A program made the translations under genes and the position numbers. A DNA stretch of 63,681 nt, counting the filler. It is 8 parts of 8 records of this genome, joined end to end, with 100 filler letters (N's around TTAATTAATTAA, not from the genome) between each part and the next. Parts side by side here need not be neighbours in the genome. Positions count along the whole stretch, not along the records: positions 51,145 to 57,972 come from SRR31147125_53799; 7 more parts are not named here. One strand, given 5' to 3'. Under the pieces are notes generated by a model, which was given only the letters and a program-made list of their open reading frames with translations, had not been told where the DNA came from and did no database searches. How positions within the stretch are numbered: the stretch's first letter is position 1; every line of letters starts with the position of its first letter. Positions 5,258 to 58,072 of the stretch are shown here, piece by piece.

Positions 5258-5357
5258 NNNNNNNNNNNNNNNNNNNNNNNNNNNNNNNNNNNNNNNNNNN
5301 NTTAATTAATTAANNNNNNNNNNNNNNNNNNNNNNNNNNNNNNNNNNNNNNNNNNNN
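5258..5357. other. Artificial contig spacer
   Basis: N44-TTAATTAATTAA-N44. Confidence 0.98.
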
Positions 5358-16341: not shown

Positions 16342-16441
16342 NNNNNNNNNNNNNNNNNNNNNNNNNNNNNNNNNNNNNNNNNNNNTTAATTAATTAANNN
16401 NNNNNNNNNNNNNNNNNNNNNNNNNNNNNNNNNNNNNNNNN
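16342..16441. other. Artificial contig spacer
   Basis: N-TTAATTAATTAA-N. Confidence 0.98.
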
Positions 16442-23556: not shown

Positions 23557-23656
23557 NNNNNNNNNNNNNNNNNNNNNNNNNNNNNNNNNNNNNNNNNNNN
23601 TTAATTAATTAANNNNNNNNNNNNNNNNNNNNNNNNNNNNNNNNNNNNNNNNNNNN
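23557..23656. other. Artificial contig spacer
   Basis: N-TTAATTAATTAA-N. Confidence 0.98.
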
Positions 23657-32876: not shown

Positions 32877-32976
32877 NNNNNNNNNNNNNNNNNNNNNNNN
32901 NNNNNNNNNNNNNNNNNNNNTTAATTAATTAANNNNNNNNNNNNNNNNNNNNNNNNNNNNNNNNNNNNNNNNNNNN
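32877..32976. other. Artificial contig spacer
   Basis: N-TTAATTAATTAA-N. Confidence 0.98.
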
Positions 32977-45571: not shown

Positions 45572-45671
45572 NNNNNNNNNNNNNNNNNNNNNNNNNNNNN
45601 NNNNNNNNNNNNNNNTTAATTAATTAANNNNNNNNNNNNNNNNNNNNNNNNNNNNNNNNNNNNNNNNNNNN
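45572..45671. other. Artificial contig spacer
   Basis: N-TTAATTAATTAA-N. Confidence 0.98.
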
Positions 45672-45890
45672 AAACGCTACACTTTTACTTTACAAAATAC
45701 ACATCAATTCTCCTTGCAATTTATATATACTGATTTTATCATGTATCCAATTTATATTCAACAAAACACCTTCCATAAATTATTCAAAATTGACATTTTT
45801 TTCATTTGTTATATAATGTCATTATATATATAAAATTTGTATATACAATGACAAAAAAATCTTGTTTATATGATTAAGAGGGAACAATTT

Positions 45891-48884
45891 ATGAAGTCAA
45901 TTTTAAATCGCAGCATCAGTATGCTGCTTGTTGTTATACTGGTGTTCACATCAGTTATGCTATCCGGCTGTGAAGAGCTGCCAATGGATACAGAGCCTAA
46001 TGTCCCTGCGTTTTTAGAAAACCCAACGGGCATCCACAGGGAATACTACGGTGCAAAGGATTATGACCGTATGGCACTGGATGAACTAGCATCGCTGGAG
46101 ATAATCATCGACTTGCTGACAGAGGAAATCATCAATCCACGTACAGGCGAGTTCGATGACCCGACACCTGAACCTGAGCCTACGGCAGATATCACCCTGC
46201 CATCAAATGTCAGCGCAAAGCTGAAAAGCTTGATAAATGAATATCGGTCTTATTATGAAACTGATTATATATATGACATGCTCCTTAGGCGCAGTGATTT
46301 GCTTAGTGCAAAGTATCGACTGGCAGTATATTTGGATGAGCTTCGCTCACAGGGATATTTGCGTGAAGATGTAGTCATTATTATATACAACACTTTAGGC
46401 TATGCCTCCCTTTCCAATGAGCTAGTATGCAGAAACGGCATAATCGCACTGCAATATGCAGTATATGACAACGGCATATCCGATGCTGAGGTGCACCTAA
46501 TTAATGCGATCAATCACTACGAGCAAGCAGCAGAGCACGAAATGAATATGGAAACCATCGACATGATGCTTTCCTGCCTTGCCTGCTACACAGAAGTGCT
46601 ATTGGGGCTGGAAATCGCAGGCATCACTCCCGATGACAGCTATCTGGATGACAGCATAGACACCGACGGCGACGGAATATCCGACGGCTTTGAGCTGGCG
46701 TTTAAAATAAACCCATACAAAATGGACACGGACGGCGACGGACTGGATGACTATTTTGAGTCTATGAACCTGCCATTTATCGACCCGACACTGGAGGATA
46801 CAGACGGCAACGGCATCATTGATTTATACGAAGATAATGACTTTGACTGGCTGAGCAACGAGCAGGAAGCTATTTTAGGTACATCCCCGACAAATGAGGA
46901 CAGCGACTATGATAAGCTGGATGACAGATTTGAAATAGAAGTGACCGGCACAGACCCATTAAAGGTGGACACAGACGGTGACGGACTGACAGACTATGAA
47001 GAGTTTAACATGCACACCAATCCAAATGCGCCTGATACAGACGGCAATGGCATATTAGACAAGGATGAATTTATACCGCAGCTTGTGCGCCATGAAATAG
47101 AAGTGGAAGAAAAGCAAGAGCTATATGGCTTGGACATAGTCTTCAGCGCAAAAGGATATGCACAGGATACAACAGACATCACAGATACCTATAATCTGGA
47201 CGTTAAGTCATCATCTATTCTAGGGCTGGTAGGTTCACCTATCCACTTTAATACTCACTCGGAGTTTATAGATGCCAATATATCTTTTTACTTCTCGTCA
47301 TACTCACTGGGCGCAGTTAACCCTGATGATTTGGCAATATTATGGTATGATGAATCTATGCACCAGTACAAACTTACCAACTCTGTGGTTAATTCAGCTT
47401 GGGGCTGTATAAGTGCTGACATTACAGAGACAGGCACATATTTGGTTGTGGACTTTGCGGAGTTTTCTACACTGCTGACCCAAGTAACATCGTCAGCACA
47501 ATCGAATGTAAGCACTGCTGAAAAAGCAGGAAGCTCTATTGATAGCGACGGCGACGGACTGTATGATGAGGATGAAGTTAACGGCATTTTGACGCTGTTC
47601 GGCAGATTCTACAGCAATCCTGACAAAAAAGACACCGATGAAGATACCATCCCAGACGGAGTGGAAATGGGCGTTGCTGACTATTATATAGGTATGAAAG
47701 ACGGCATTTCGTGGCAATACAAAGGATACGATGTTAAAAGCAACCCCAGCAAAAAAGACAGTGACGGCGATGGGTTTAATGATAATGAAGATGATTTACC
47801 TCTGATTGGTCTGTATGCAATGGGAGCTTATGAAAGACAAGTTTACTTAGAGGCGCTGTTTGAACTATATGAAGAAACCCAAGATATTTTCCTATCGATA
47901 GATGCTATCCCAGAAGATATAACTTGGTATGAAGAGAACTTCTGCTTCTGGATTCCACTAGTTGCCGAAGCAAACTGGCTGGAAAAGGCAGTAATAGCAG
48001 CAGGCTTTAAATATGATGTTTATGAAGATGCATATGTTTCAAGAATTTATAATGTTCAAAAAGTTGCTGGATATCATAAAATTATTGACGATGTATCAAC
48101 ATATCCGTTTATGATGGTTATTGATTGTGAACCCATAAAATTCTTTGCCAATGGTCACTGGTATATGATAGAGTTATGGAAAGGACAATACGGTTTATCT
48201 ACAGGATGTGAAATCGGTATATATGAAAGAGAAGATTTAACTGATGAAACAATTGTACCGGGAAATGAAACATGGTGGAAATGTGTAGATAAAGAAGATT
48301 TTATCCTAATGCAATATAAATTTGAGAGAAGAAAAAATGAGAAAGAGCTGGAATTAGCTGACCCTGAAGATGGAATAATTGATAAGGTTTTCGAAAGAAA
48401 TTCCGATAATCCACGTACTGATGAAACAGAAAAGCATTGGTGGTTAACTGGTTTTATGCCCGGGATACATTCTTATCAATGGCAATTATCAATGGATATA
48501 AAATTAAACTTCAATAACTATGAAATGTACACCAGTTTCCTAGAGTCTATGGAATCCTCTCCACCAAACGGGTTAGGATATGAAATAACCGATAAAAATC
48601 CTAGTGATAATTCAGTATCTTTTACATTCGACCAGGTGAAAACTAATCCAGATGAATATGATCCTTTCTCGAATAGTATTCCTCAGGCTGTAAAGCTATC
48701 TCAAGAATGGTGCAATGCAATGGTAATTGAATATAATAATCAAAAAAATGATAAAGGATTAGTAGATAACAGTCCAGCTTCAATAGTTCAAATGGACTTG
48801 AGAGTGGCAGAAATGTTTGCAGAAAGTTTTTGGATTTACGCTAAGAATTTTATGGAATGGGTAGAAGATATTATTACCGACTAA
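45891..48884 (+). CDS. Large lipoprotein with DxDxDG Ca-binding repeats and a C-terminal DUF4474-like domain
   Basis: Lipobox LSGC; repeated DTDGDGxxDxxE units; C-terminal GFKYD...IDCEPIKF...IELWKGQYGLSTGCEIGIY...HWWLTGF. Confidence 0.75.
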   Translation: MKSILNRSISMLLVVILVFTSVMLSGCEELPMDTEPNVPAFLENPTGIHREYYGAKDYDRMALDELASLEIIIDLLTEEIINPRTGEFDDPTPEPEPTADITLPSNVSAKLKSLINEYRSYYETDYIYDMLLRRSDLLSAKYRLAVYLDELRSQGYLREDVVIIIYNTLGYASLSNELVCRNGIIALQYAVYDNGISDAEVHLINAINHYEQAAEHEMNMETIDMMLSCLACYTEVLLGLEIAGITPDDSYLDDSIDTDGDGISDGFELAFKINPYKMDTDGDGLDDYFESMNLPFIDPTLEDTDGNGIIDLYEDNDFDWLSNEQEAILGTSPTNEDSDYDKLDDRFEIEVTGTDPLKVDTDGDGLTDYEEFNMHTNPNAPDTDGNGILDKDEFIPQLVRHEIEVEEKQELYGLDIVFSAKGYAQDTTDITDTYNLDVKSSSILGLVGSPIHFNTHSEFIDANISFYFSSYSLGAVNPDDLAILWYDESMHQYKLTNSVVNSAWGCISADITETGTYLVVDFAEFSTLLTQVTSSAQSNVSTAEKAGSSIDSDGDGLYDEDEVNGILTLFGRFYSNPDKKDTDEDTIPDGVEMGVADYYIGMKDGISWQYKGYDVKSNPSKKDSDGDGFNDNEDDLPLIGLYAMGAYERQVYLEALFELYEETQDIFLSIDAIPEDITWYEENFCFWIPLVAEANWLEKAVIAAGFKYDVYEDAYVSRIYNVQKVAGYHKIIDDVSTYPFMMVIDCEPIKFFANGHWYMIELWKGQYGLSTGCEIGIYEREDLTDETIVPGNETWWKCVDKEDFILMQYKFERRKNEKELELADPEDGIIDKVFERNSDNPRTDETEKHWWLTGFMPGIHSYQWQLSMDIKLNFNNYEMYTSFLESMESSPPNGLGYEITDKNPSDNSVSFTFDQVKTNPDEYDPFSNSIPQAVKLSQEWCNAMVIEYNNQKNDKGLVDNSPASIVQMDLRVAEMFAESFWIYAKNFMEWVEDIITD

Positions 48885-48906
48885 TATACTAGATACAGGA
48901 GAAAAA

Positions 48907-50658
48907 ATGAAAAAAGTATTTAAATTTATTTTAATAGCAATAATGTGCACCAATTTAATATCGTGTATAGTCCCAAATGCTGTAGACAGAATAGAAGATA
49001 ATGAAAACAGTGAACAAAAATTAATAGACCAAAAACTATACGAAGCCTGCTATTTCGGCAACCTTGAAGCTGCAAAAGAAGCAATTGCAGATGGTGCTAA
49101 TTTGGACGAAATGATTGGTGTAGATAGTAATTCAAACAACCCATACATTTTATCAAGAGCCAATTGGAACCCTAAAATTGCACAATATTTAATTCTAAAC
49201 GGTGCCAATCCTAACCATGCTTCGTCAAAAACAGGTTTCAGCCTGGTAATGTGGGAAGCATGGTGCTCAAATCCTGATGGCTGTGCATTTCTATTGGAAA
49301 ATGGTGCAGATGCCACGCAACAGGATAAGGATGGTCTGACGGCTCTAGAGTATGCAGTGAATGACTACAAGGTTGAAGATACGGAAGAAGAAGTACTGGC
49401 CGTAATAAAAATTTTGTTAGAGTATGGATGTGAGGTTACATCCGAAACATTAAAACGCGCTTTAATGGCAGCAGATACCAGCAGGTATAAAGTCTATCAA
49501 GTCGTTGTACAAGAATTAATTAATAACGGTTACGAGCCTGATTTAAGCGAAGCTATGACTGCCGCTATTCTAGGGAATTCAGATGAATTAAGCAAATTGA
49601 TTAAGGACCATAAAATCATAGATGAAGAAATTGATAGAATATTACTTTTCGCTTCTGCATTCGGAACAAGAGAAAATGTTGAACTTTTAATTGAAAACGG
49701 AGCTAATATTAACACCATAGATTATGACTATAACAATCCGTTAAATGTTGCAGTAAAATATGATAATTTTGACACTGTCAAGTATCTGGTTGAGAGAAAC
49801 ATAAGACTGGAACAACAAAATAGAGATGATAATACTCCTCTTTTGGAAGCGATAGAAAGAGATTATTTTGATATAGTTAAATATCTTCTGGAAAGCGGAT
49901 GTAATGTTAATTATCGTGATGAAGAAAATTACTACTGGGTTGATGACCCATATTGTATAGCATCAAGATACGGATGTGTTGAAATATTGAAATACCTTGA
50001 GGATAATTGGTATGAGACTGATGCCGAAAAAGAAGGTATAGCATTCAGCATAGCCTGCGAGTATAATTGCCTAAAATCTATCGAATATTTCGTTGAAAAA
50101 GGTTTAGACCCCAATATGGATGTAAAGCGTGGTAACGTGATGGAGTTCTGTACAGATTTAGAAGTAATTAAATATATGGAACAGCACGGGGGAGACATTC
50201 ATAATAAACACATTTTAGATTTGAGTGCAAAGACAGGAAACTACGAAGTCTGCCAATACCTAATCGAACAAGGTGCAGATATTAACCAAACATTCAACGA
50301 TGATAACGATACTCCCATATGCAACGCAATACTAATGGGGCATATGGACATTGTAAAATTAATGATAGAAAACGGTGCTGAAATAACCTACAGCGTATTA
50401 AAGAGTGCAGCGCAGCACCAAAGCCGAAATATTTTTCTGTACATTTTGGATAACTGCGAGGATGTCAATTTGCAGAACGACGAGGGCTGGACGGTGTTAA
50501 TGTACGCTGCTGCTAGGAATGATTTGGAGCGTGTGCAGTATCTTGTTGAATACGGTGCTGATATAAACATAGCTAACAATGACGGCGAAACTGCGCTGGA
50601 TATTGCACGGGATAATAATTATGGTGATGTTGTTAAGTATTTAAAGGGATTGGATTAA
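48907..50658 (+). CDS. Ankyrin-repeat lipoprotein
   Basis: Lipobox LISC; many ankyrin repeats (GWTVLMYAAARNDLERVQYLVEYGADIN, GETALDIA). Confidence 0.9.
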   Translation: MKKVFKFILIAIMCTNLISCIVPNAVDRIEDNENSEQKLIDQKLYEACYFGNLEAAKEAIADGANLDEMIGVDSNSNNPYILSRANWNPKIAQYLILNGANPNHASSKTGFSLVMWEAWCSNPDGCAFLLENGADATQQDKDGLTALEYAVNDYKVEDTEEEVLAVIKILLEYGCEVTSETLKRALMAADTSRYKVYQVVVQELINNGYEPDLSEAMTAAILGNSDELSKLIKDHKIIDEEIDRILLFASAFGTRENVELLIENGANINTIDYDYNNPLNVAVKYDNFDTVKYLVERNIRLEQQNRDDNTPLLEAIERDYFDIVKYLLESGCNVNYRDEENYYWVDDPYCIASRYGCVEILKYLEDNWYETDAEKEGIAFSIACEYNCLKSIEYFVEKGLDPNMDVKRGNVMEFCTDLEVIKYMEQHGGDIHNKHILDLSAKTGNYEVCQYLIEQGADINQTFNDDNDTPICNAILMGHMDIVKLMIENGAEITYSVLKSAAQHQSRNIFLYILDNCEDVNLQNDEGWTVLMYAAARNDLERVQYLVEYGADINIANNDGETALDIARDNNYGDVVKYLKGLD

Positions 50659-50661
50659 TAG

Positions 50662-51044
50662 ATGAAAAGGAAATCAACCATTATATCATTACTGCTAGTT
50701 TGTGTAATTTTAGCATCCTGCACAACAAGCCCGAAATATATAATTCCATCTACAATCGATAAGATTGAATATAAAATTGAGAGCAGTCAGGACGAAGAAC
50801 AAGTTGCCTTAGACAGAAAACTATACGAAGCCTGCTACTTCGGCAACCTAGAAGCAGTAAAAGAAGCTATTGCAGATGGTGCTAATTTAGATAAAATGAT
50901 TAGTGTAGATTACGAAATCCCCAATCCATATATAGTTGCAAGAGCTGGTACAAACATGGATATTGCACAATATTTAATCTTAAACGGAGCAAACCCAAAT
51001 CAGGCATTAGATATAGAGATACTAAAAGATGTGAACTCAAAAAA
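50662..51044 (+). CDS. Second ankyrin lipoprotein paralog (3' truncated)
   Basis: Lipobox LASC; KLYEACYFGNLEAxKEAIADGANLD and IAQYLILNGANPN shared with the previous gene. Confidence 0.8.
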
Positions 51045-51144
51045 NNNNNNNNNNNNNNNNNNNNNNNNNNNNNNNNNNNNNNNNNNNNTTAATTAATTAA
51101 NNNNNNNNNNNNNNNNNNNNNNNNNNNNNNNNNNNNNNNNNNNN
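51045..51144. other. Artificial contig spacer
   Basis: N-TTAATTAATTAA-N. Confidence 0.98.
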
Positions 51145-51335
51145 TTTTTCTCCTAAATTGTTATTTTCCATAATACTCTCCTTAATAATTAAAAATTATA
51201 AATAATTTGTTTTTGTAGCGTAGAGGAGAAAGCAAATAATTATCTCACTCTATAAATAAACAAAAAATCAAATCTGTTATCTTTTGAAAACCTAGCATTA
51301 CTTTTTCTACGTTAGAAAAATATTTTTTGAATTGC

Positions 51336-51409
51336 GTATAATCTTCTGGAGATTGCCGACGTGCACATCGTTTCGATTTCATGTGCATGTTGGCAATCCT
51401 CTGTTAGCT
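51336..51409. repeat. attC-like hairpin site 1
   Basis: GTATAAT-N8-GATTGCCGACGTGCACAT...ATGTGCATGTTGGCAATC-N4-GTTAGCT; AAT in place of AAC. Confidence 0.7.
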
Positions 51410-51441
51410 GACGTAATTTTCGAAAGAAACCAATATCCTAC

Positions 51442-52287
51442 CTATTTTTTTGTTGCCTTTATCTTATTACAGAATTCCATTACCTTACGATCAACTTCAT
51501 CTGGATAACTATATTCTAACTTTTCACCAATATATTTCGCAAGCTTTCTAAATAAACTAGTTACCTTGTAAAACGCTTGCCAATTTTCTTCTATTCCTCC
51601 ACTTGCATATGATTGCTCAACTTCATTCCACACTTCAGGTGATAGGAGTTTTTTATATTTTTTACCAAGTGCACCTGTTTCTATTGACCAACCATTTTTA
51701 TATCCAATATGCCAATCAACTATTTTATGTAAAAATGAATACCTCAATATATTATCTAACATATACTTCGCAAACGGCAACTCATCTCTCCATAAATACT
51801 TGGGTATGTAATATGCATCCCACCAAAATTCATGTACTAATGCATTAAATTCCTCTTCTGTTGGTTTCTTAATTATAAATTCGCTATATGTACACTCAAT
51901 GGAATCTTCTATCTTTTTATCCTTATCTACTAGTATTTTATATCCATTATCATATCGATCAGTTTGAATTTTTTCTTGTTCTGTAATCTGAAAATCAATT
52001 CTTATACCATCTTCAAATAAAATTAATCTTGTAATCCATTCATTAGAAAAAGTAGAACGAGGCTTATATGGCCATCTAACCATAACTTTTCCAAAAGTAG
52101 AAAGCCAATTGTCATCCTTAACAAAGTACTGAATGTCTGAAACATATAATTCGATATCATAATCAGACAAAAAATCAACTTTATTATCCTTCTTAACTCG
52201 TGAACTAGTTAGTATTGCAGTTCTTACAATATCATTCCCTCTTGCCCACTCCGTAAATTGTGTTAATACTTGTTCTTCACTTCTCAT
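51442..52287 (-). CDS. Aminoglycoside 6-adenylyltransferase (AadK/AadE) family protein
   Basis: MRSEEQV...SSR...DFLSDYDIELYV, LILFEDGIRIDF, EFWW...YIPKYLWRDEL, GKKYKKLL, YSYP. Confidence 0.8.
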   Translation of the reverse strand: MRSEEQVLTQFTEWARGNDIVRTAILTSSRVKKDNKVDFLSDYDIELYVSDIQYFVKDDNWLSTFGKVMVRWPYKPRSTFSNEWITRLILFEDGIRIDFQITEQEKIQTDRYDNGYKILVDKDKKIEDSIECTYSEFIIKKPTEEEFNALVHEFWWDAYYIPKYLWRDELPFAKYMLDNILRYSFLHKIVDWHIGYKNGWSIETGALGKKYKKLLSPEVWNEVEQSYASGGIEENWQAFYKVTSLFRKLAKYIGEKLEYSYPDEVDRKVMEFCNKIKATKK

Positions 52288-52322
52288 CTGTGTCCCCCCT
52301 CACAAGATATCGGTTAGTATTC

Positions 52323-53204
52323 CTACAAGCTATCTTCTAATAAACTAAGATTCGCATAAAAGAACTGGTCATCAATCTTATTTCTCCTAACACACCAGGC
52401 TAGTTCACCTAAAGCATTATGGATTCTATATATAGGCAAGGTACCCTCGATATCAGGTAACTCTTCTATTGATTTATAACCGCTAATAAAAGACTCTTTC
52501 GATTTAGGATATACGTTCCATATATGCTCTGATATCTTAATGAAATCGATTGATGCTGATCCTCCACGTGATGATTCGAAATCAACTATACCTACCACTT
52601 TTCCCTCTTTAACAAGAATATTTCCAGGCCTATAATCAAAATGTACTAGACAAGGAATTTCTGATTTGAAACTCTCGTTCATTTCTAGTTCATAGAATTT
52701 TTCTAGTTTCTCCTTTAGCCCAGTGGATATATAACCATCAATTTCCAACAACCAGTTTTTATATCTTTTTCTTATACTCTCCCACCAGTCATTTTTCTTG
52801 TCATTTAGTTCAAACTTTTCTAATTTGATTCTATGTATTGATGCTAGAGCTTTTCCTATTTCGAAACTTTGCTCTGCACAAATTGGGAGGCTCATTGGAT
52901 CACCATCTATATATGACATTAATAATGCGCCAATATTTTTATTATCCCCATACCAGACATTAAGCAAATCAGGAACTAAAGGATTGCTTGATAATAACTC
53001 TAATGCTCTAGCTTCACGATAAACTTTCTCTCTATTAAATGGGATCTTCAAAACAACTTTATCGTTGTTCATTAATTTTAGTATTCTCACAGTAGAGCTA
53101 TATGACTCAGTAACTAATTCGACTGATTTAACATCTACATTGAAAATTTCAATTGCCTTATCGATTACGTCCATGTTGTTCTCCTTCAGTTGTATGATTT
53201 CCAA
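52323..53204 (-). CDS. Aminoglycoside phosphotransferase (APH/choline kinase-like) family protein
   Basis: VVLK, HFDYRPGNIL catalytic loop, VDFE. Confidence 0.82.
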   Translation of the reverse strand: MEIIQLKENNMDVIDKAIEIFNVDVKSVELVTESYSSTVRILKLMNNDKVVLKIPFNREKVYREARALELLSSNPLVPDLLNVWYGDNKNIGALLMSYIDGDPMSLPICAEQSFEIGKALASIHRIKLEKFELNDKKNDWWESIRKRYKNWLLEIDGYISTGLKEKLEKFYELEMNESFKSEIPCLVHFDYRPGNILVKEGKVVGIVDFESSRGGSASIDFIKISEHIWNVYPKSKESFISGYKSIEELPDIEGTLPIYRIHNALGELAWCVRRNKIDDQFFYANLSLLEDSL

Positions 53205-53278
53205 GACTTAAATTCTTGTCACTAATTCTTATCACACCATTAACATTGTGTATGAAACTTACTAAGGTAAAACTGTCC

Positions 53279-53329
53279 CTATAACGTTCCGCGAATATGC
53301 GAAGTGGAATCGCATATTCTCTGTTATAG
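53279..53329. repeat. attC-like hairpin site 2
   Basis: CTATAAC-GTTCCGC-GAATATGCGA-AGTGGAA-TCGCATATTC-TCT-GTTATAG. Confidence 0.85.
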
Positions 53330-53383
53330 GCAGTTTTTTCTTGGATGTTTGGGGAAAAACGGAGCCATGGATGGCGGAGTTTT

Positions 53384-54079
53384 CTATTTTAGCTTCATTA
53401 AGCATGAATCTACCCATTTCTCATCCATTTTTTTCAATCGGTTTTTCTTTAAGTTTTCCTTTATTATCCATTTAATATGTTTTCCTTGTAGATCAAATAG
53501 TTTTTCAAAAATGGTTTTACCTTCATTTGGAATTGCAGATATTGCAACACTCCAGCCATATCCTAAGGTTTTTCTTAAAGATGTGCTTTTTTTGTCAAGC
53601 TTTTCGTCATGAGCAAATTGCTTAGATATTTGTAGTAAGATATTAAGAACTGCTATATTTGATTCTCTATTGTCCAGTAATTTCGGCTCACAAAGGCCTG
53701 CGACAACAGCTCTTTGTTCAAGTTCACTTCCTTGGACAAAACATTCCAACTTTCCTAGAATGTCAGTCATTTTGTTTTCAGCTATTTCTTGAATCGATAT
53801 TGCTACCGATTCTCTGATTCTCCAGCTTTCATGATTGGCATATTGTTTTAAGAATGAAATGACGTCCTCTAAAGAATTCCGATTTTTAATTGAATATGAT
53901 AAAACTCCGCACATACCAACAAATTCTTCGGGAGAATTCTTTACAGTAGGTGTTATGTATTCAATACATTCTTTAATTTGTTCTTCATCTGCATTTTTTG
54001 AAAATTCATACAACAATTTTAAATTTCCTCGTGGCCCAGGCAAATTCGAATTCTCAATTAAATATTTAATGTCATACAT
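53384..54079 (-). CDS. HEAT-repeat-like hypothetical protein
   Basis: SNLPGPRGNL, ESWRIRESVA, LCEPKLL, LGYGWSV, WIIKENLKKNRL. Confidence 0.7.
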   Translation of the reverse strand: MYDIKYLIENSNLPGPRGNLKLLYEFSKNADEEQIKECIEYITPTVKNSPEEFVGMCGVLSYSIKNRNSLEDVISFLKQYANHESWRIRESVAISIQEIAENKMTDILGKLECFVQGSELEQRAVVAGLCEPKLLDNRESNIAVLNILLQISKQFAHDEKLDKKSTSLRKTLGYGWSVAISAIPNEGKTIFEKLFDLQGKHIKWIIKENLKKNRLKKMDEKWVDSCLMKLK

Positions 54080-54146
54080 TTATTTTCCTTTCTTTGTGCC
54101 ATGGATGGTGCAATGATAAATATAAAATTCTCCAAGAAAAAATTGC

Positions 54147-54224
54147 CTATAACGTCACGTGAGCTTACGACGTGGACATTCTTCCGAATTTATTGTCCAT
54201 GTCGTCGTAAGTTTGCAGTTAGGT
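54147..54224. repeat. attC-like hairpin site 3
   Basis: CTATAAC-GTCACGT-GAGCTTACGACGTGGACA...TGTCCATGTCGTCGTAAGTTT-GCA-GTTAGGT. Confidence 0.85.
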
Positions 54225-54356
54225 GTGTACTGAGTGACAACTTTCGAAACGTATAGATCTATGCTTAAGCCTTCTGTATGACTCCATCCATTCGTACAGT
54301 AAATCCAATCAGTTTTATAAATGTCTAGCCGTCAAGATAATATAAACGTAATGAAC

Positions 54357-54761
54357 TTAAATTCCGGATAATCTGGACTTAATACTGGTTACAATCAAAC
54401 TCCATTCCTCAAAGGAATTACTCTCTTCCCACAACTCAAATAGCTCTGAATTATCTTTCATCACTCTATCAATAGCTTTAATTGCACTTGGCACTAGAGT
54501 AGACACTTCCAAACTCTTCACTTTGCTAATAAATCCAGTAAATTCATCATTGTTAAAATCTGAATAATTATGCTCAGTTAAAACCATATCTAGGATTGCC
54601 GCAGAAATAAGTATTTCATGAGCCTCATCAACTTCTAAATACTCACTATCAAATCTACTAAATGCCTTCATCATGTACTCTACTGGGTTTTCCTCTACAA
54701 AATCGTACATGAAATCAGATGCATTATCATTCTCGAATATTCCAACTCCCCATGTTCCCAT
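54357..54761 (-). CDS. DUF4259-like protein
   Basis: MGTWGVGIFENDNASDF start with RBS GAAAGGAAGG; C-terminal SELFELWEE. Confidence 0.8.
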   Translation of the reverse strand: MGTWGVGIFENDNASDFMYDFVEENPVEYMMKAFSRFDSEYLEVDEAHEILISAAILDMVLTEHNYSDFNNDEFTGFISKVKSLEVSTLVPSAIKAIDRVMKDNSELFELWEESNSFEEWSLIVTSIKSRLSGI

Positions 54762-54889
54762 AGTAACCTTCCTTTCAAAACAAAATAATTTTATTAATAC
54801 TATATATTCCAATGCGTTACAATCCGTTATTCGTGATCTCTTTAACTTCAATTACATTATCAACTTTATCTTAGGTCGAATGAAATATA

Positions 54890-55381
54890 TTACATTCCCT
54901 CCATCATAATTTTTATGCTATCTCTTGAAAAACCAGTAGAAGTAGATGAGAATATTCCCATGACACCTCCAGCTATACATATTAAAATGAGAATCTTGAT
55001 AGTTAATTCAGAAACATTCTGACCTCCTAGTTCTTTTAACAAAATTGATATTTCTTTTGCTCCGTTCTTTATTAAAACCCAAATTAGAATAATAATCCAA
55101 ACGGCTACTACTGATATGTGAAATAAAGCAATCCATGGATTAAAGGGGGTTGGAAAAAGATAATACAAAAAGTAAGGAATTTTACCGAATATCATCCCTA
55201 GTCCAACAGCAATCCAAGGGACATTACCTACTAGAATAATACCTTTTGAAACACGTAAACCTATTTTCAAGTGTTCTCTATCTATTATTTTTGATTTACA
55301 TAAATAGTAGAAAAATCCTCCATATATTGATGTAGCTATAATTGAAATCACCCAAAAGAATTGTTGATAAATTACTAGCAT
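54890..55381 (-). CDS. Hypothetical four-TM membrane protein
   Basis: RBS AGGAGG; four hydrophobic segments. Confidence 0.7.
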   Translation of the reverse strand: MLVIYQQFFWVISIIATSIYGGFFYYLCKSKIIDREHLKIGLRVSKGIILVGNVPWIAVGLGMIFGKIPYFLYYLFPTPFNPWIALFHISVVAVWIIILIWVLIKNGAKEISILLKELGGQNVSELTIKILILICIAGGVMGIFSSTSTGFSRDSIKIMMEGM

Positions 55382-55423
55382 TAATTAACCTCCTAAGTCA
55401 TGTTAAAGTATCCTTTTATTTTC

Positions 55424-55520
55424 TCATAACGTCTACCGAATTGCCGACGTCTATTGGCTCAAAAATTACCCGCTTACCATAACCTTCAAGTCGATAGATG
55501 TTGGCAATTCGCTGTTAGAT
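55424..55520. repeat. attC-like hairpin site 4
   Basis: TCATAAC-GTCTACC-GAATTGCCGACGTCTATTG...CGATAGATGTTGGCAATTC-GCT-GTTAGAT. Confidence 0.85.
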
Positions 55521-55586
55521 GAAATATTCGAATGATCCCATTCCAACAAGCTAAAGAGTCACGCGACACACCTCATTGCTTATTCT

Positions 55587-56165
55587 TTATTGAGCATTAA
55601 GGAACAATATCATGAGATACTCACCGGCATAGGTACCATCACCATACTTCAATGCATGCTTCTTCGTCCCATGTATTTCAAATCCCAAACTCTTATACAT
55701 GCTTAAAGCTCGATTGTTATGAGTAACAACTTCCAATTCAAGTTGCTCTACCCCATTCCCTCTACTCCACTTTATACATTCTTCCATCATCGTTCTTCCG
55801 ATACCCAATCCCCAAAAAGATTTTCTCACAGATATACCTAATGCTGCTCGATGCAAATATCTTCGTTTACTCATAACTATTCCTACAGAACAGTTAGCTA
55901 CTATCTGTCCTTCAACTTCAGCTATCAAAAGTTGACTATTGGCATCATCTGCAAGGCTTCTTATAAAAGCTTCTTCTTGTTCTGCCGTGAAATCAAATTC
56001 CCCGGGTTCACGTGCCAAAAATCTCGTCTCACAGTCTACATCTTTCATATAATTGATTAGATTCTGTGCATCGCTCACTTCTGGGATTCTTACAATTAAC
56101 TGCTTATTGTCCTTCAATTCATACTTCTCTTTATAAGCTACTGTCTTAGCTTCGTGGTTACACAT
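55587..56165 (-). CDS. GNAT-family N-acetyltransferase
   Basis: LGISVRKSFWGLGIGR, LELEV...NNRALSMYKSLGF; RBS GGAGG. Confidence 0.9.
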   Translation of the reverse strand: MCNHEAKTVAYKEKYELKDNKQLIVRIPEVSDAQNLINYMKDVDCETRFLAREPGEFDFTAEQEEAFIRSLADDANSQLLIAEVEGQIVANCSVGIVMSKRRYLHRAALGISVRKSFWGLGIGRTMMEECIKWSRGNGVEQLELEVVTHNNRALSMYKSLGFEIHGTKKHALKYGDGTYAGEYLMILFLNAQ

Positions 56166-56281
56166 AAAAAATTCCTCCATTTAATATTGACTTCTTCAAA
56201 AATAATGTCACTAATATCGCTAATGTCGCCTTCCATGTAACCACCTCCTTCAAAATCATCTATATTAAAACGCTGAAAGCA

Positions 56282-56343
56282 TCATAACAGCATTGTTCTT
56301 TGCCCCTATTACCGAATGTGAATATGTCAACTCGCTGTTAGCA
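56282..56343. repeat. Degenerate attC-like site 5
   Basis: Right end CTC-GCT-GTTAGCA intact and left TCATAAC present, but the stem pairs poorly. Confidence 0.55.
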
Positions 56344-56362
56344 GACGTATATAATGACAACA

Positions 56363-56985
56363 TTAACCATTCTTTGATTCAAATAATGGCTTTTCTTCAT
56401 CACTAAGCTTAGGATATACTACTTTAAAATAGTAATTATTAGGATACTTATAACTGAAATACGTCAATAGTAAAGTTATAGGATAACCTGTGATCCAATT
56501 AATACCATACATAACTTCAAAAGAATCTAATCTTAACATAGTTATCTTTATAAATAACTTCATAGCATAAAAGATTCCCCAAATTAATGTCAATTTCCTT
56601 AGTGCAGGTCTACATTGATCATATATATTATCATTCTCAAAGAAACTCTTGGCTAATACCGAGACTAGGTCATTCTTAGTGAAATATGAAGCCAAAAAAA
56701 TTAGTGAATATAGAGTATTACTTACTAGTGGATAAATAAAAACAGTCATCGGATTATCTGATATAAATTCTATAAAAGAACTCACAAATAAACCTATCAT
56801 TCCAAAAATATTAAGTGGTGTAAATCTTCTATTAACTTTATAGACCGAAGCATACATTAGTAAACCAATAGTAAAACTAATAACAATAGCAACTCTAAAT
56901 GTAGTGTACTTAAAAAGATTGATGAAAACCAAAGCTGGTATAAAACTAAAAATCAATTCTTGATGCTTATAAAAAAACTCTTCAT
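56363..56985 (-). CDS. Membrane protein, VC0807/DUF3159-like (one-base frameshift in A run near 56975)
   Basis: RBS AAGGGG and ATG at 56985 rejoin the ORF if one T is added; LRKLTLIWG motif, several TM helices. Confidence 0.6.
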
Positions 56986-57020
56986 TGTAATTCCCCTTCC
57001 GAAACCGAATTATATATGTC

Positions 57021-57095
57021 TGTTAACGTCCCGTGAACTTACGACGTGGCCATCCTTCCAGTTAAAACGTCCATGTCGTAAGTTCGCTGTTAGGC
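57021..57095. repeat. attC-like hairpin site 6
   Basis: TGTTAAC-GTCCCGT-GAACTTACGACGTGG...CCATGTCGTAAGTTC-GCT-GTTAGGC. Confidence 0.88.
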
Positions 57096-57197
57096 GTAGT
57101 CTCACACGGAAGCTACTATAACCTATAGAATGAGCCACTTCCTCTTATCTTCATATCCTATATATGTATTATACAAGCCTCATTACATCTACGTTTA

Positions 57198-57584
57198 CTA
57201 GTCTAAATATGGATAGTTTTTTCTAACTTCCATCTGATACTCATCCAAACTCACCATCTTGTCTTCTCTAAAACGTATTACTGAAACTCCGTCAAATGTA
57301 TACTCAACTGAATCTACTTCGCAAACAAAATTCCAGATAGATGTTGCTACTTCAGAGTCATCATCGAAATACTGATTACTTATATCCCATGAAATTACAC
57401 GATTACCTTTAGAATGCCAACCGTCAAACCACTTCTCTGCTACATCAATACCAATATACATATCGCCTGTGCATTCTTTAACTATTACATCATGATTCAA
57501 AAGGGATAAAAATAATGTCTTATCCTGAGCAATCCAAGCTCTAAAATAATCTCTCGTTATTTGAGTTGCAACTTTACGATTCAT
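57198..57584 (-). CDS. SnoaL/NTF2-like protein
   Basis: YFRAW..QD, ECTGDMY.G, WNF.C, FDGVSVIRF...EY; RBS GGAGG. Confidence 0.8.
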   Translation of the reverse strand: MNRKVATQITRDYFRAWIAQDKTLFLSLLNHDVIVKECTGDMYIGIDVAEKWFDGWHSKGNRVISWDISNQYFDDDSEVATSIWNFVCEVDSVEYTFDGVSVIRFREDKMVSLDEYQMEVRKNYPYLD

Positions 57585-57633
57585 TGTACTCCTCCAAAAA
57601 AATCATTATTGTCTTAAACCAATGTGGGATTAC

Positions 57634-57705
57634 GCCTAACGTTCCGCTGTTATGCGAAGGGCAATTTGGGTGTAGCAAAGCGGAACCATATAGTCGTTGT
57701 TATAT
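57634..57705. repeat. attC-like site 7 (partly degenerate)
   Basis: GCCTAAC-GTTCCGC-TGTTATGCGAAG...GTC-GTT-GTTATAT; left arm resembles site 2. Confidence 0.65.
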
Positions 57706-57719
57706 GCTGTTGCAATTTT

Positions 57720-57972
57720 TTATGCACCCTTTTTAATTCTAATTTTTGTATAGATTGCCACGATAATCATTAAAGCTAATGTAAAAAGTGCTTTATATAG
57801 AGTGGTTGAACCTTCAAGTTCTGTTGTACCGAAATTGACTAAAACATCCCAAACAGCACCAATTCCCCAAAAAAACGGAAATATAATTAAAATATTATTA
57901 GTAATTCTAAATACTGATGCATACATAATTCCAACAAAAATTAGTTTTATAAACTCTGGTTGAAAACCTGCA
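57720..57972 (-). CDS. C-terminal part of a membrane protein (5' truncated)
   Basis: Hydrophobic ORF ending 14 nt before site 7. Confidence 0.6.
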
Positions 57973-58072
57973 NNNNNNNNNNNNNNNNNNNNNNNNNNNN
58001 NNNNNNNNNNNNNNNNTTAATTAATTAANNNNNNNNNNNNNNNNNNNNNNNNNNNNNNNNNNNNNNNNNNNN
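57973..58072. other. Artificial contig spacer
   Basis: N-TTAATTAATTAA-N. Confidence 0.98.

Follow-up and report, generated by a model that had tools for sequence, protein, structure and literature searches.

The window analysed here, a stretch of DNA of 63,681 nucleotides, consists of eight contigs concatenated with linkers of the form N44-TTAATTAATTAA-N44, and the real context of the sites described below is only the contig at positions 51145-57972 (6.8 kb, 33% GC). This contig is a single cassette array with all of its genes on the minus strand. A two-gene cassette (51442..53204) carries an ANT(6)-like adenylyltransferase gene (51442-52287; Pfam PF04439, 259.6 bits; NCBIfam ANT(6)/AadS, 229 bits, below the 450-bit cut-off) and an APH-family phosphotransferase-like gene (52323-53204; PF01636, 66.8 bits), with no site separating the two. 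It is followed by a cassette ORF of 231 aa with a weak HEAT-repeat signal only (53384..54079), and by a two-ORF cassette (54357..55381) in which no site of the family model R1 separates the gene for a DUF4259 protein (54357-54851; PF14078, 106.8 bits) from an ORF of 163 aa that matched neither Pfam nor NCBIfam (54890-55381). Genes for a GNAT acetyltransferase (55587..56180; PF00583, 63.5 bits), a DUF3159 membrane protein (56363..56956; PF11361, 47.5 bits) and a SnoaL-like protein (57198..57584; PF12680) come next, and a further cassette ORF (57720..57972) is cut by the contig end. Neither a recombinase nor an attI site was found on this contig, a tblastn search of the whole window with the recombinase P0006 returned nothing, and neither did a search of the window against Rfam. 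The contig is likely a fragment of an integron-like gene-cassette array, separated from its recombinase; its host would be a low-GC, probably Firmicutes-type organism, whose contig was binned or concatenated with unrelated higher-GC contigs.

Seven recombination-site-like elements, all on the plus strand, accompany these cassettes. Site 1 (51335..51410; R1, 59.0 bits) has the core TAAT instead of TAAC and folds at -16.7 kcal/mol on the plus strand vs -12.6 kcal/mol on the minus strand; its spacers of 8 and 4 nt keep the 4-nt offset that the first-pass annotation had assigned to it. Site 2 (53278..53330; R1, 42.8 bits) is a minimal 51-bp site that reads AAC-GTTCCGC, a 10-bp stem with a 7-nt loop, and TCT-GTT, and its R box is self-complementary over the full length. 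Site 3 (54146..54225; R1, 51.4 bits) reads AAC-GTCACGT, stem, and GCA-GTT, with a 3-nt bulge higher on the 3' arm. Site 4 (55423..55521; R1, 86.7 bits), of 97 bp, has AAC-GTCTACC, a stem of 23 pairs and GCT-GTT, and a BLAST comparison placed it at 84.8% identity to a site in a Firmicutes MAG (L008, 2446-2537). Site 6 (57020..57096; R1, 56.1 bits), which forms one subfamily with site 3, has AAC-GTCCCGT, a stem of 17 pairs and GCT-GTT. The lengths of 51 and 97 bp were as first annotated, as was the variation in the distal stem and loop.

The two elements left were not mentioned in that annotation. Site 5 (about 56284..56345) is decayed: AAC-N7...N3-GTT is kept, the stem is absent, the fold reaches -4.5 kcal/mol, and the family model R1 gave no match there. 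Element 7 (57634..57655) consists of two R boxes (GCCTAAC ... GTTATGC) with the stem-loop absent; it scored 17.6 bits with R1, the seven letters of the long spacer of site 2 recur in it, and it is a remnant site. With two of the seven window sites decayed and one carrying a mutated core, this copy of the array may be inactive.

The pattern AAC-N7-GAR...TTY-N3-GTT, proposed from the letters of sites 2, 3, 4 and 6, was searched as a regular expression over the whole window. Exactly four matches were obtained, all on the plus strand and at those sites (53283-53325, 54151-54220, 55428-55516 and 57025-57091), with the same N7 and N3 letters as had been listed. In 4/4, the stem directly after the spacers reached 8 bp or longer with G.T pairs allowed. 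When the contig was shuffled 300 times with its dinucleotide composition kept, the expression alone gave a mean of 0.54 matches, with four matches in 1 of the 300, and the expression plus stem gave a mean of 0.003 and a maximum of 1. The 7/3 loop can be redrawn as 6/2 or 5/1 if G.T and terminal pairs are allowed; the constant feature of the sites is the 4-nt offset. Among 119 usable sites found by the family model, a 5'-side surplus of 3 or 4 unpaired bases was present in 108, the commonest spacers were 6/3 (47 sites), 6/2 (30) and 5/1 (16), and the unbroken stem after the spacer had a median of 16 bp. When five window sites were aligned with 12 relatives, 93.5% of the cells were paired and 16 of the 27 pairs showed compensatory change, a count reached by 0/500 shuffles; slid controls of this alignment were only 28-52% paired. 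TAA and GTTA were invariant in 17/17 sites, and the C of AAC was present in 16/17, with the T of window site 1 as the exception.

The geometry was compared with that of sites beside true IntI genes by using a common detector. Asymmetry was +3 or +4 in 29 of the 41 lopsided-loop sites vs 0 or +1 in 74 of the 103 true-IntI sites, as the claim of a different geometry had anticipated, and at the 12th pair the arm offset was +3 or +4 in 31/41 vs -3 to 0 in 83/103, the latter corresponding to a longer 3' arm further in. The alignment of true-IntI sites has extrahelical bases at fixed columns. In Nivina 2016 (PMC5027507), the attC norm is a spacer of 5-6 nt per arm and, on the L'' arm, 2-3 extrahelical bases; the lopsided-loop sites have neither an unpaired 5-6 nt spacer on each arm nor 2-3 extrahelical bases on the bottom-strand L'' arm. 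As a stand-in for the attC model of IntegronFinder, 26 true-IntI sites were used to build a proxy canonical model, R2, in which extrahelical bases occupy fixed columns. All 148 matches of R2 fell within IntI loci; the window and 10 related array loci had none. With its filters off, R2 reached at most 4.7 bits on the real sites of the window, and on element 7 it aligned the R box alone (12.8 bits). In the reverse test, R1 gave one marginal match in 246 kb of IntI arrays. As far as this proxy can stand for the standard model, the results agree with the predicted invisibility of the sites to standard tools: with R2, they neither scored well nor could be redrawn canonically with extrahelical bases.

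These results bear on the reading that an ordinary IntI integron with ordinary attC sites is present and that the 7/3 loop is an artefact of drawing. Such an integron would account for the RYYYAAC ... GTTRRRY core boxes with AAC/GTT, which the sites do have, and for the cassette layout, the size range and the bottom-strand bias; some of the few Firmicutes CALIN elements reported with IntegronFinder 2.0 (PMC9024848) could also be such sites. The geometry under the common detector, the failure of R2, the single marginal R1 match in IntI arrays and the bulge-free stems argue against it, as does the finding that IntI over the TIGR02249 cut-off was present in 0/7 array-bearing genomes, and we consider this reading very improbable.

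To characterize strand polarity, both strands of each site were folded. The strand opposite the genes folded better in 39 of the 41 lopsided-loop sites, which had been selected on that favoured strand, and G.T pairs made up 123/1171 pairs on it vs 25/1110 on the other. True-IntI sites had the equal polarity (93/103 fold better; G.T pairs, 151/2500 vs 36/2375), and the polarity given for attC in PMC5027507 agrees. Conserved G.T pairs were also seen in the alignment, with G.U in 16 of the 17 rows at one column. The 6 nt to the left of site n were then compared with the 6 nt to the right of site n-1, across the intervening ORF. Complementarity across the ORF averaged 4.96 of 6 and was perfect in 16/46, a mean reached by 0/5000 random pairings; flanks of the same site averaged 3.39 (1/59 perfect) and the control 3.35 (0/51 perfect). 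The lopsided-loop arrays thus have R-box flanks that pair across the cassette, as in integrons, and in the window the right end of site 6 is complementary, over 10 nt, to the left end of element 7, these two being the flanks of the SnoaL-like cassette. Together, covariation, G.T bias and across-ORF flank complementarity suggest that the strand opposite the genes undergoes integron-type recombination.

It could be argued that the hairpins are intergenic structural repeats, such as REP/MITE-like elements or terminators, since they are intergenic, palindromic and repeated. We find this extremely improbable: the flank complementarity spans the ORF and not the hairpin, all sites lie in one orientation, opposite to all genes, no T-run after the stem was seen in the site sequences, one and the same cassette occurs in different places and genomes, and the invariant TAAC/GTTA core goes together with linkage to a tyrosine recombinase. 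Elements of the pdif or Xer-module type were considered separately and rejected. Those are 28-bp duplex XerC-XerD sites that alternate in orientation around modules, and the present sites are covarying hairpins of 51-130 nt, all in one orientation.

Firmicutes and Tenericutes MAGs contained related sites, as did 10 of the 151 genomes of one order, and arrays can be large, with 33 or more sites across about 35 kb in G130:C15; most relatives are MAGs, whose contigs may be mis-binned and whose arrays may be broken. A XerA/IntI-like recombinase of 341 aa lies beside related arrays, which are just downstream and co-oriented with its gene. This arrangement was observed in G086, G138 (frameshifted), G008 and G131, and in five further cases the gene is at a contig end, pointing outward; G008:C1 and G041:C1 each carry a second copy close to sites, but arranged otherwise. 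With sites called by R1, the recombinase was present in 8/10 site-positive and 5/141 site-negative genomes (Fisher p about 1e-8). It scored 239.6 bits against NF040815 (cut-off 220) and so belongs to the XerA-type family, whereas its TIGR02249 score was 221 bits, below the cut-off of 265, from two aligned stretches between which model positions 177-233 are passed over; it thus lacks both of these features of an integron integrase, the IntI insertion (I2 helix) and a TIGR02249 score over the cut-off. An alignment with four true IntIs showed that about 41 residues of the IntI insertion are missing, and the structural model had no helix at this position, with XerA and VchIntIA as the best fold matches. 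The PDB sequence matches included 4a8e (152 bits) and 2a3v (146 bits), and 4a8e and 5hxy in the XerA comparison. The enzyme also has an extra N-terminal domain. A candidate for the divergent integrase that had been postulated from the sites lies beside related arrays; the window's own contig has neither a recombinase nor attI, and the link to the enzyme consequently rests on homology of the sites to those in other genomes. The array genomes also hold separate XerC/D-like genes.

A junction that bears on the crossover was found in G001. A single cassette is present both at an attI-like site, after a recombinase pseudogene (G001:C48), and inside the array G001:C85; in the array the start of the cassette follows L'-N7, and identity with the other copy starts at (C)GTTA. 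A conserved sequence ending in GTTA directly follows the recombinase gene in G001 and G130, which are MAGs and provide one shared-cassette junction. Cassettes common to several genomes had unclean borders, and their site bodies look chimeric, with the 5' arm and loop replaced and the 3' arm kept; one shared-cassette pair ends at the far GTTA. Since these borders are unclean, the side of the crossover rests on the single G001 junction.

That junction also bears on whether the polarity might be reversed, so that the gene-sense strand (the window's minus strand) is recombined and the genes are antisense to the usual integron layout. The surplus would then be on the 3' arm, as in classical bottom strands, and the four extra bases would be clustered extrahelical bases. 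On the gene strand, asymmetry was indeed -3 or -4 in 23 of the 30 detected sites, the sign of a classical bottom strand, and with the recombinase gene on the cassette strand, the layout relative to the enzyme gene would be the classical one. Yet by folding energy and G.T pairing the favoured strand is the one opposite the genes (39/41), as in true IntI arrays, the only readable attI junction breaks at the core by the long spacer, that is, at the R' position in the gene sense, and co-oriented integrases are already known from the IntI 'reverse integrons' (PMC4909258). We therefore give reversed polarity little credence.

Another enzyme might mobilise the new family of sites, or might once have done so, with the XerA/IntI-like recombinase as a bystander or one of several; the window's copy would then be a stranded array of CALIN type. 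The absence of a recombinase from the window's contig and from 2 of the 10 site-positive genomes is in line with this, as are the five genomes with the recombinase and no R1 sites, the broken recombinase in G001 and G138, and, in the window, the decay of sites 5 and 7 and the mutated core of site 1. We nevertheless regard this account as unlikely, given the four independent loci with a co-oriented recombinase directly upstream and the five more at contig ends, the strong co-occurrence of sites and recombinase, the conserved attI-like sequence just after its gene, and the lack of IntI in the seven array genomes.

The explanation that we favour, and consider likely, is a fragment of an integron-like array whose sites fold on the plus strand and are recombined by a XerA/IntI-like enzyme without the I2 helix. 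A cassette would comprise one or two promoterless-looking minus-strand genes followed by a recombination site, which would work as a folded single strand, namely the window's plus strand, complementary to the genes (the 'bottom strand' of integrons). Along this strand, an R' box whose last letters are TAAC would be followed by the long spacer (6-7 nt), by a long stem that runs on without interruption and varies at its tip, by the short spacer (2-3 nt) and by an R'' box that opens with GTTA. Strand exchange within the AAC/GTT core beside the long spacer may excise cassettes and insert them, the partner being an attI-like site that closely follows the recombinase gene; this gene would lie upstream of the array and co-oriented with it, and the putative enzyme would be a tyrosine recombinase distinct from IntI, with the extra N-terminal domain. 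The fixed surplus of 3-4 nt on the cleaved arm may take the role of extrahelical bases and mark the strand and end to be recombined, which fits an enzyme without the helix that reads extrahelical bases.

The proposed system shares with classical integrons the unidirectional arrays of one- or two-gene cassettes, which can be large, the size (50-130 bp) and imperfect hairpin form of the sites, whose inverted cores are RYYYAAC/GTTRRRY-like, the folding of the strand opposite the genes with a G.T bias, the R-box flanks derived from the neighbouring cassette, and a putative attI-like site by a tyrosine recombinase of the Xer/IntI branch. It differs in its unequal spacers (cleaved arm, 6-7 nt; opposite arm, 2-3 nt) where classical sites have 5-6 nt on both, in the absence of extrahelical bases with an arm offset of +3 or +4 vs -1 to -3, and in a recombinase that lacks the IntI insertion, falls below the TIGR02249 cut-off, has an extra N-terminal domain and is encoded co-oriented with the cassettes. 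The hosts, Firmicutes/Tenericutes-type genomes, also differ; complete integrons are almost absent from such genomes according to PMC4889954 and PMC9024848. An integrase gene co-directional with the cassette array is shared with the Treponema 'reverse' integrons (PMC4909258), which differ in using a true IntI. Archaeal XerA and bacterial XerC/D, likewise without the IntI insertion, are the closest family of the recombinase in both sequence and fold. The Xer/dif system acts on one 28-bp duplex site to resolve chromosome dimers and is not known to have cassette arrays or long covarying hairpins. CTX phage is reportedly integrated by XerCD at a folded single-stranded attP hairpin with an unpaired central region, which would be a precedent for a Xer-type enzyme without the I2 helix exchanging one strand of a folded hairpin; this case reportedly differs in using a single phage site and the host XerC and XerD, with no cassette array and no dedicated enzyme.

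The sequence data show the sites with their covariation, strand bias and non-IntI geometry, the pairing of flanks across cassettes, the proximity of the recombinase gene to related arrays, and one cassette that occurs at the attI-like site as well as in an array; that the recombinase acts on the sites, that the reaction uses a single strand, and what the loop does are inferred. We lean, by a modest degree, towards a separate integron-like lineage, hosted by anaerobic Firmicutes-type bacteria, whose arrays run to several dozen sites and whose recombinase either never acquired or has lost the I2 helix, the 3-4-nt surplus serving for strand and end choice. If this is true, the IntI insertion is not needed for single-strand cassette recombination, and surveys keyed to IntI, or those whose attC model misses the sites as the proxy R2 did, would overlook a whole class of cassette pools, some with resistance-like genes. 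The window itself holds a portion of one such array, which continues beyond the contig end at 57972, where the last cassette ORF is cut; this DNA was detected in one run alone, the probable source, whose data are contigs, and a 6892-bp record of equal depth in that run overlaps this end of the contig.

A search of the window with the expression AAC-N7-GAR...TTY-N3-GTT returned four matches, all on the plus strand of the contig at positions 51145-57972. Their spacer letters were exactly those listed in the first-pass annotation, and in 4/4 a stem of at least 8 bp started directly after the spacers. In dinucleotide-shuffled versions of the contig, the expression matched 0.54 times on average, and 0.003 times when the stem was also demanded. 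Site 1 had spacers of 8 and 4 nt, keeping the 4-nt offset reported for it, and a TAAT core. Site 5 (56284-56345, plus strand) was decayed, with both spacers kept and all stem pairing lost, and element 7 (57634-57655, plus strand) was decayed to two R boxes and a long spacer with no stem-loop, as if its hairpin had been deleted. When G.T and terminal pairs were allowed, the loop could be redrawn as 6/2 or 5/1; the constant feature was a 5'-side surplus of 4 nt on the plus strand. Of the array's seven sites, five were intact, one of them with a mutated core, and two were decayed; the enzyme was absent from the contig, and this copy may be active only in trans, or inactive.

Relatives were sought by querying one genome per species with both stem arms of sites 1 and 4. 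Two short low-GC contigs were recovered from two metagenome-assembled genomes (MAGs), Firmicutes bacterium HGW-Firmicutes-7 (7 sites) and Tenericutes bacterium HGW-Tenericutes-1 (5 sites); on both contigs the sites fell between small genes on the opposite strand, and one site was 85% identical to window site 4. Six of the eight loci from the genome scan (L001-L006) had the appearance of chance or coding matches and were dropped. In an alignment of the five window and 12 MAG sites, TAA and GTTA were invariant and the C of AAC was present in 16/17, 93.5% of cells were paired, and compensatory changes were seen in 16 of 27 pairs; no shuffle equalled this, and slid registers came nowhere near. A covariance model of the family (R1) recovered all five intact sites of the window, with scores of 43-87 bits, gave 46 matches on eight contigs of the Firmicutes MAG (both strands counted), and was positive in 10 of the 151 genomes sampled from the order of that MAG. 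In one of those 10 genomes, an array that began at a contig end and extended for about 35 kb held at least 33 sites by nhmmer count. The R1 set contained 125 matches in 21 sources, and 119 of these, with a first stem of at least 6 bp, were measured. The loop difference was +3 (55 sites) or +4 (53 sites) in 108/119, the commonest spacers were 6/3, 6/2 and 5/1, and the median unbroken stem was 16 bp. The fixed asymmetric loop first noticed in the window was borne out, and the observation extends to a family of at least 119 measured sites.

Strand bias and geometry were calibrated on 16 arrays adjoining true integron integrases (16/16 over the cut-off of TIGR02249, the integron integrase model). 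The sample was drawn at class level, and such an integrase was present in 110 of its 301 genomes; three unpublished genomes entered this tally but contributed no other data. A first de novo detector, demanding 6/7 R-box pairs, missed real sites because their R boxes are chimeric, and was replaced by a common detector that required at least 6 of the 8 positions of the RYYYAAC/GTTRRRY consensus, pairing of AAC with GTT, and folding of the DNA into a single hairpin. The first-loop difference (5' minus 3' unpaired bases) was 0 or +1 in 74 of 103 true IntI sites and +3 or +4 in only 5 of them, whereas the same detector found +3 or +4 in 29 of 41 sites of the new family. The arm offset at the 12th pair was -3 to 0 in 83/103 true IntI sites and +3 or +4 in 31/41 new-family sites; the negative offset of the former means a longer 3' arm, that is, extrahelical bases. 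When 26 true-IntI sites were aligned, both extrahelical bases fell at fixed columns, and the L-box helix was 91.9% paired with 8/10 pairs compensated. PMC5027507 describes the attC norm as 5-6 nt per arm, with a further 2-3 extrahelical bases in L''. Compared with classical attC, the total of unpaired loop bases is similar (about 9-11), but in the new family they are divided differently between the arms, with the surplus on the arm opposite the extrahelical bases. The differences in loop and arm offset from true IntI sites support the different recognition geometry that had been proposed.

Conserved G.T pairs occurred at several stem positions, on the strand opposite the genes. That strand folded better in 93 of 103 sites of true IntI arrays and 39 of 41 of the new family, the folding-energy figure being somewhat inflated by the choice of sites on the favoured strand. 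G.T pairs made up 151 of 2500 pairs on the strand opposite the genes versus 36 of 2375 on the gene strand in true IntI sites, and 123 of 1171 versus 25 of 1110 in the new family. The same strand bias has been published for attC (Nivina 2016, PMC5027507). Since both biases match those of true IntI arrays, the plus strand of the window corresponds to the integron bottom strand, and relative to it the genes are in the classical orientation.

In a structural-model comparison with known attC sites, the two models scarcely recognised each other's sites. Over 246 kb of true IntI arrays, R1 had a single match, and that a marginal one (E 0.9). The reciprocal model, R2, was built from the 26 aligned true-IntI sites with the extrahelical bases left unpaired, and is a stand-in for an attC model, trained on GC-rich gammaproteobacterial sites. 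R2 gave 148 matches, every one in IntI loci, including four loci outside its training, and no match in the window or ten related array loci; with filters off, its best score on the real window sites was 4.7 bits. In addition, Rfam at gathering thresholds had no match in the window.

Cassette mobility was assessed by comparing the 6-nt flanks outside the core in the arrays found with R1. The left flank of site n and the right flank of site n-1, across the ORF, were complementary at a mean of 4.96/6 positions, with 16/46 perfect, versus 3.39/6 (1/59 perfect) for the two flanks of the same site and 3.35/6 (0/51 perfect) for the control pairing with the right flank of site n+1; the observed mean was unmatched by 5000 random pairings. 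This complementarity is the integron signature, in which the two ends of a cassette would once have formed a single R box in a circle, with exchange inside the core. Within the window, complementarity of 9-10 nt was present between sites 2 and 3, 5 and 6, and 6 and 7.

Arrays of different genomes had cassettes in common, at 72-97% identity. The borders of these cassettes were untidy; one pair ended at the next site's TAAC and another at the next site's GTTA, and random site bodies were already about 69% alike, so the side of the crossover cannot be read from common cassettes. The upstream site of the best pair had its 5' arm and loop replaced, while its 3' arm was identical along with the cargo. 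Chimeric neighbouring sites were seen in two comparisons of fetched loci, L046 4420-4516 with L091 6604-6701 and L058 2061-2946 with L093 3389-4282, where the 3' arm, short spacer and GTTA were identical together with the cargo and the 5' arm and loop were replaced. Such chimeras suggest that exchange or conversion may also occur within sites, besides at the core.

A candidate enzyme, P0006, a 341-aa XerA/IntI-like recombinase, was encoded directly upstream of the array in genome G086, on the same strand as the cassette genes. P0006 scored over the cut-off of NF040815 (product name "site-specific tyrosine recombinase/integron integrase") and below that of the integron integrase model, to which it gave a two-piece match skipping positions 177-233. 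Aligned with four true IntIs, P0006 and a homologue sharing 49% identity with it (54% across the tblastn match) lacked the approximately 41 residues that bear the conserved IntI insertion and had about 80 extra N-terminal residues. The predicted structure (mean pLDDT 80.9) had no helix in the gap and a small, beta-rich N-terminal domain, and the best fold and sequence matches were archaeal XerA and VchIntIA, about equally. Homologues were present in 5/5 array genomes tested first. The recombinase adjoined arrays, co-oriented with them, in G086, G138 (frameshifted), G008 and G131, and lay no further than about 200-260 bp from a contig end, facing outward, on G001:C48, G130:C19, G020:C1, G110:C11 and G131:C54. 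Across the 151 sampled genomes it was found in 8/10 site-positive versus 5/141 site-negative genomes (Fisher p about 1e-8), and none of 7 array genomes yielded an IntI over the cut-off. The expected divergent integrase is supported by these related arrays, which adjoin a recombinase without the IntI insertion in genomes that yielded no IntI over the cut-off. On the window's array contig itself there was no recombinase, and P0006 had no tblastn match in the whole window. The family comprises more than 7,500 database proteins (E <1e-30); its named members, from anaerobic genera of Firmicutes, carry Xer or "integron integrase" annotations. A tyrosine recombinase fragment on G001:C48, at one point taken for an unrelated gene, is a broken copy of the array recombinase. 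On G053:C20 (L102, 3333-4700), a truncated array recombinase was followed by a second, more distant tyrosine recombinase (39% identical, with one in-frame TAG) and then by an ORF with several cysteine pairs, cut by the contig end; a mobile element may have inserted here.

The recombinase genes of G001 and G130 were followed downstream by similar sequences that end in GTTA and resemble an attI site: in G001 after the recombinase gene (L017 of G001:C48, 1-240, minus strand) and in G130 (L101 of G130:C19, 1-240, minus strand) preceded by two direct repeats (GTCGTAAAT). These repeats and the beta-rich N-terminal domain, which is absent from IntI, are a possible arm-site/arm-binding pair. In G001, the letters after the attI-like GTTA were identical to the start of a cassette that lies inside the array contig C85, where it comes after another site's 3' stem arm and long spacer; upstream of (C)GTTA, the two contexts were unrelated. 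The presence of one cassette both at the attI-like site and in the array places the break at the core beside the long spacer, on the evidence of a single junction from a MAG. In the gene sense this is the R' position, as recombined in classical integrons.

Taken together, the array system most likely works like an integron. The recombinase would bind the bottom strand in its folded form, contacting the R box and the foot of the long stem, cleave in AAC beside the 6-7-nt spacer, and exchange that strand with the attI-like site or a further array site. Because the loop is lopsided, the two strands of a site differ (7/3 versus 3/7), and the hairpin is probably kinked. We infer, as we do the chemistry, that it sets the choice of strand and end, replacing the extrahelical bases. 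Such a selector would fit an enzyme lacking the helix by which those bases are held. In the accounts of PMC4792948, PMC7790495 and PMC5027507, single-stranded cassette recombination became possible through IntI's I2 insertion and the extrahelical bases of attC. The system is integron-like but departs from integrons in three defining features, the IntI insertion, the symmetric spacer and the extrahelical bases, and the interpretation offered in the first-pass annotation is supported overall. According to PMC4889954 and PMC9024848, Firmicutes and Tenericutes have no or almost no complete integrons, although a few integrase-less attC clusters are reported in Firmicutes; co-oriented integrases are described from Treponema (PMC4909258). 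Among the open-access and bioRxiv papers searched, there was no account of cassette arrays with an insertion-less recombinase in Firmicutes.

The data describe a large, covarying attC-like family with the hallmarks of integrons (bottom-strand folding, AAC/GTT cassette exchange and an attI-like site) and another loop geometry, adjoining an enzyme without the insertion in lineages thought to be integron-poor. It can now be tested whether an I2-less Xer-type enzyme recombines folded single strands, and whether a lopsided internal loop serves as a strand selector replacing extrahelical bases. The family also bears on the rise of integrons from Xer-like ancestors. Cassette pools with ANT(6)-like, APH-like and GNAT genes escape the stand-in attC model, and no IntI flags them.

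The array contig is 6,828 bp long with 33% GC; of the seven other contigs in the window, five have 53-57% GC and two have 38% and 43%. The window spans 63.7 kb, its eight contigs being joined by linkers of the form N44-TTAATTAATTAA-N44 (5258-5357, 16342-16441, 23557-23656, 32877-32976, 45572-45671, 51045-51144 and 57973-58072). Given this disparity in GC, the sequence beyond 51145 and 57972 is no real context for the array; the assembly, at 33% to 57% GC, looks like a mixed bin in which gene neighbourhoods spanning linkers are not real. All long ORFs of the array contig were on the minus strand. Their products, a typical cassette mix, were an ANT(6)-like adenylyltransferase, an APH-family kinase-like protein, a HEAT-like protein, DUF4259, a 163-aa ORF without a family match, a GNAT acetyltransferase, DUF3159 and a SnoaL-like protein. 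One cassette (51442-53204) carried the ANT(6)/AadS-like and APH-family kinase-like genes with no site in between. The former scored 229 bits against a 450-bit cut-off, and both are remote relatives of aminoglycoside-modifying enzymes, below naming thresholds. A homologue search with the DUF4259 cassette protein brought up just 5 relatives, unnamed or distant, that offered no clue to taxonomy, and the plasmid collection had no match to the array contig at blastn sensitivity.

Both ends of the array contig cut further cassettes. In the assembly of the probable source run, a 15,943-bp record contained the whole contig and reached 9.1 kb past its low-coordinate end, and a 6,892-bp record of equal depth overlapped its high-coordinate end and carried another site of the site 3/6 subfamily; the array is therefore longer than the window shows. 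Among the runs, the contig was found only in its probable source sample, as assembled contigs, which are silent on excision. The one joint reported from this probable source was rejected as an excision product, as it was another site of the site 3/6 subfamily on a different contig.

A lone family site was also found in G001:C48 at 206.5 kb (L045, 11504-11600; 68.7 bits), flanked by two unannotated genes and far from the arrays, with a type I restriction gene in the surrounding chromosomal region and no adjoining recombinase. In the window, a separate contig of 38% GC (45672-51044) encoded a DUF4474/TSP3-repeat protein of 1004 aa and a protein of 583 aa that has numerous ankyrin repeats, the latter followed by a third protein, also ankyrin, truncated by the contig end.
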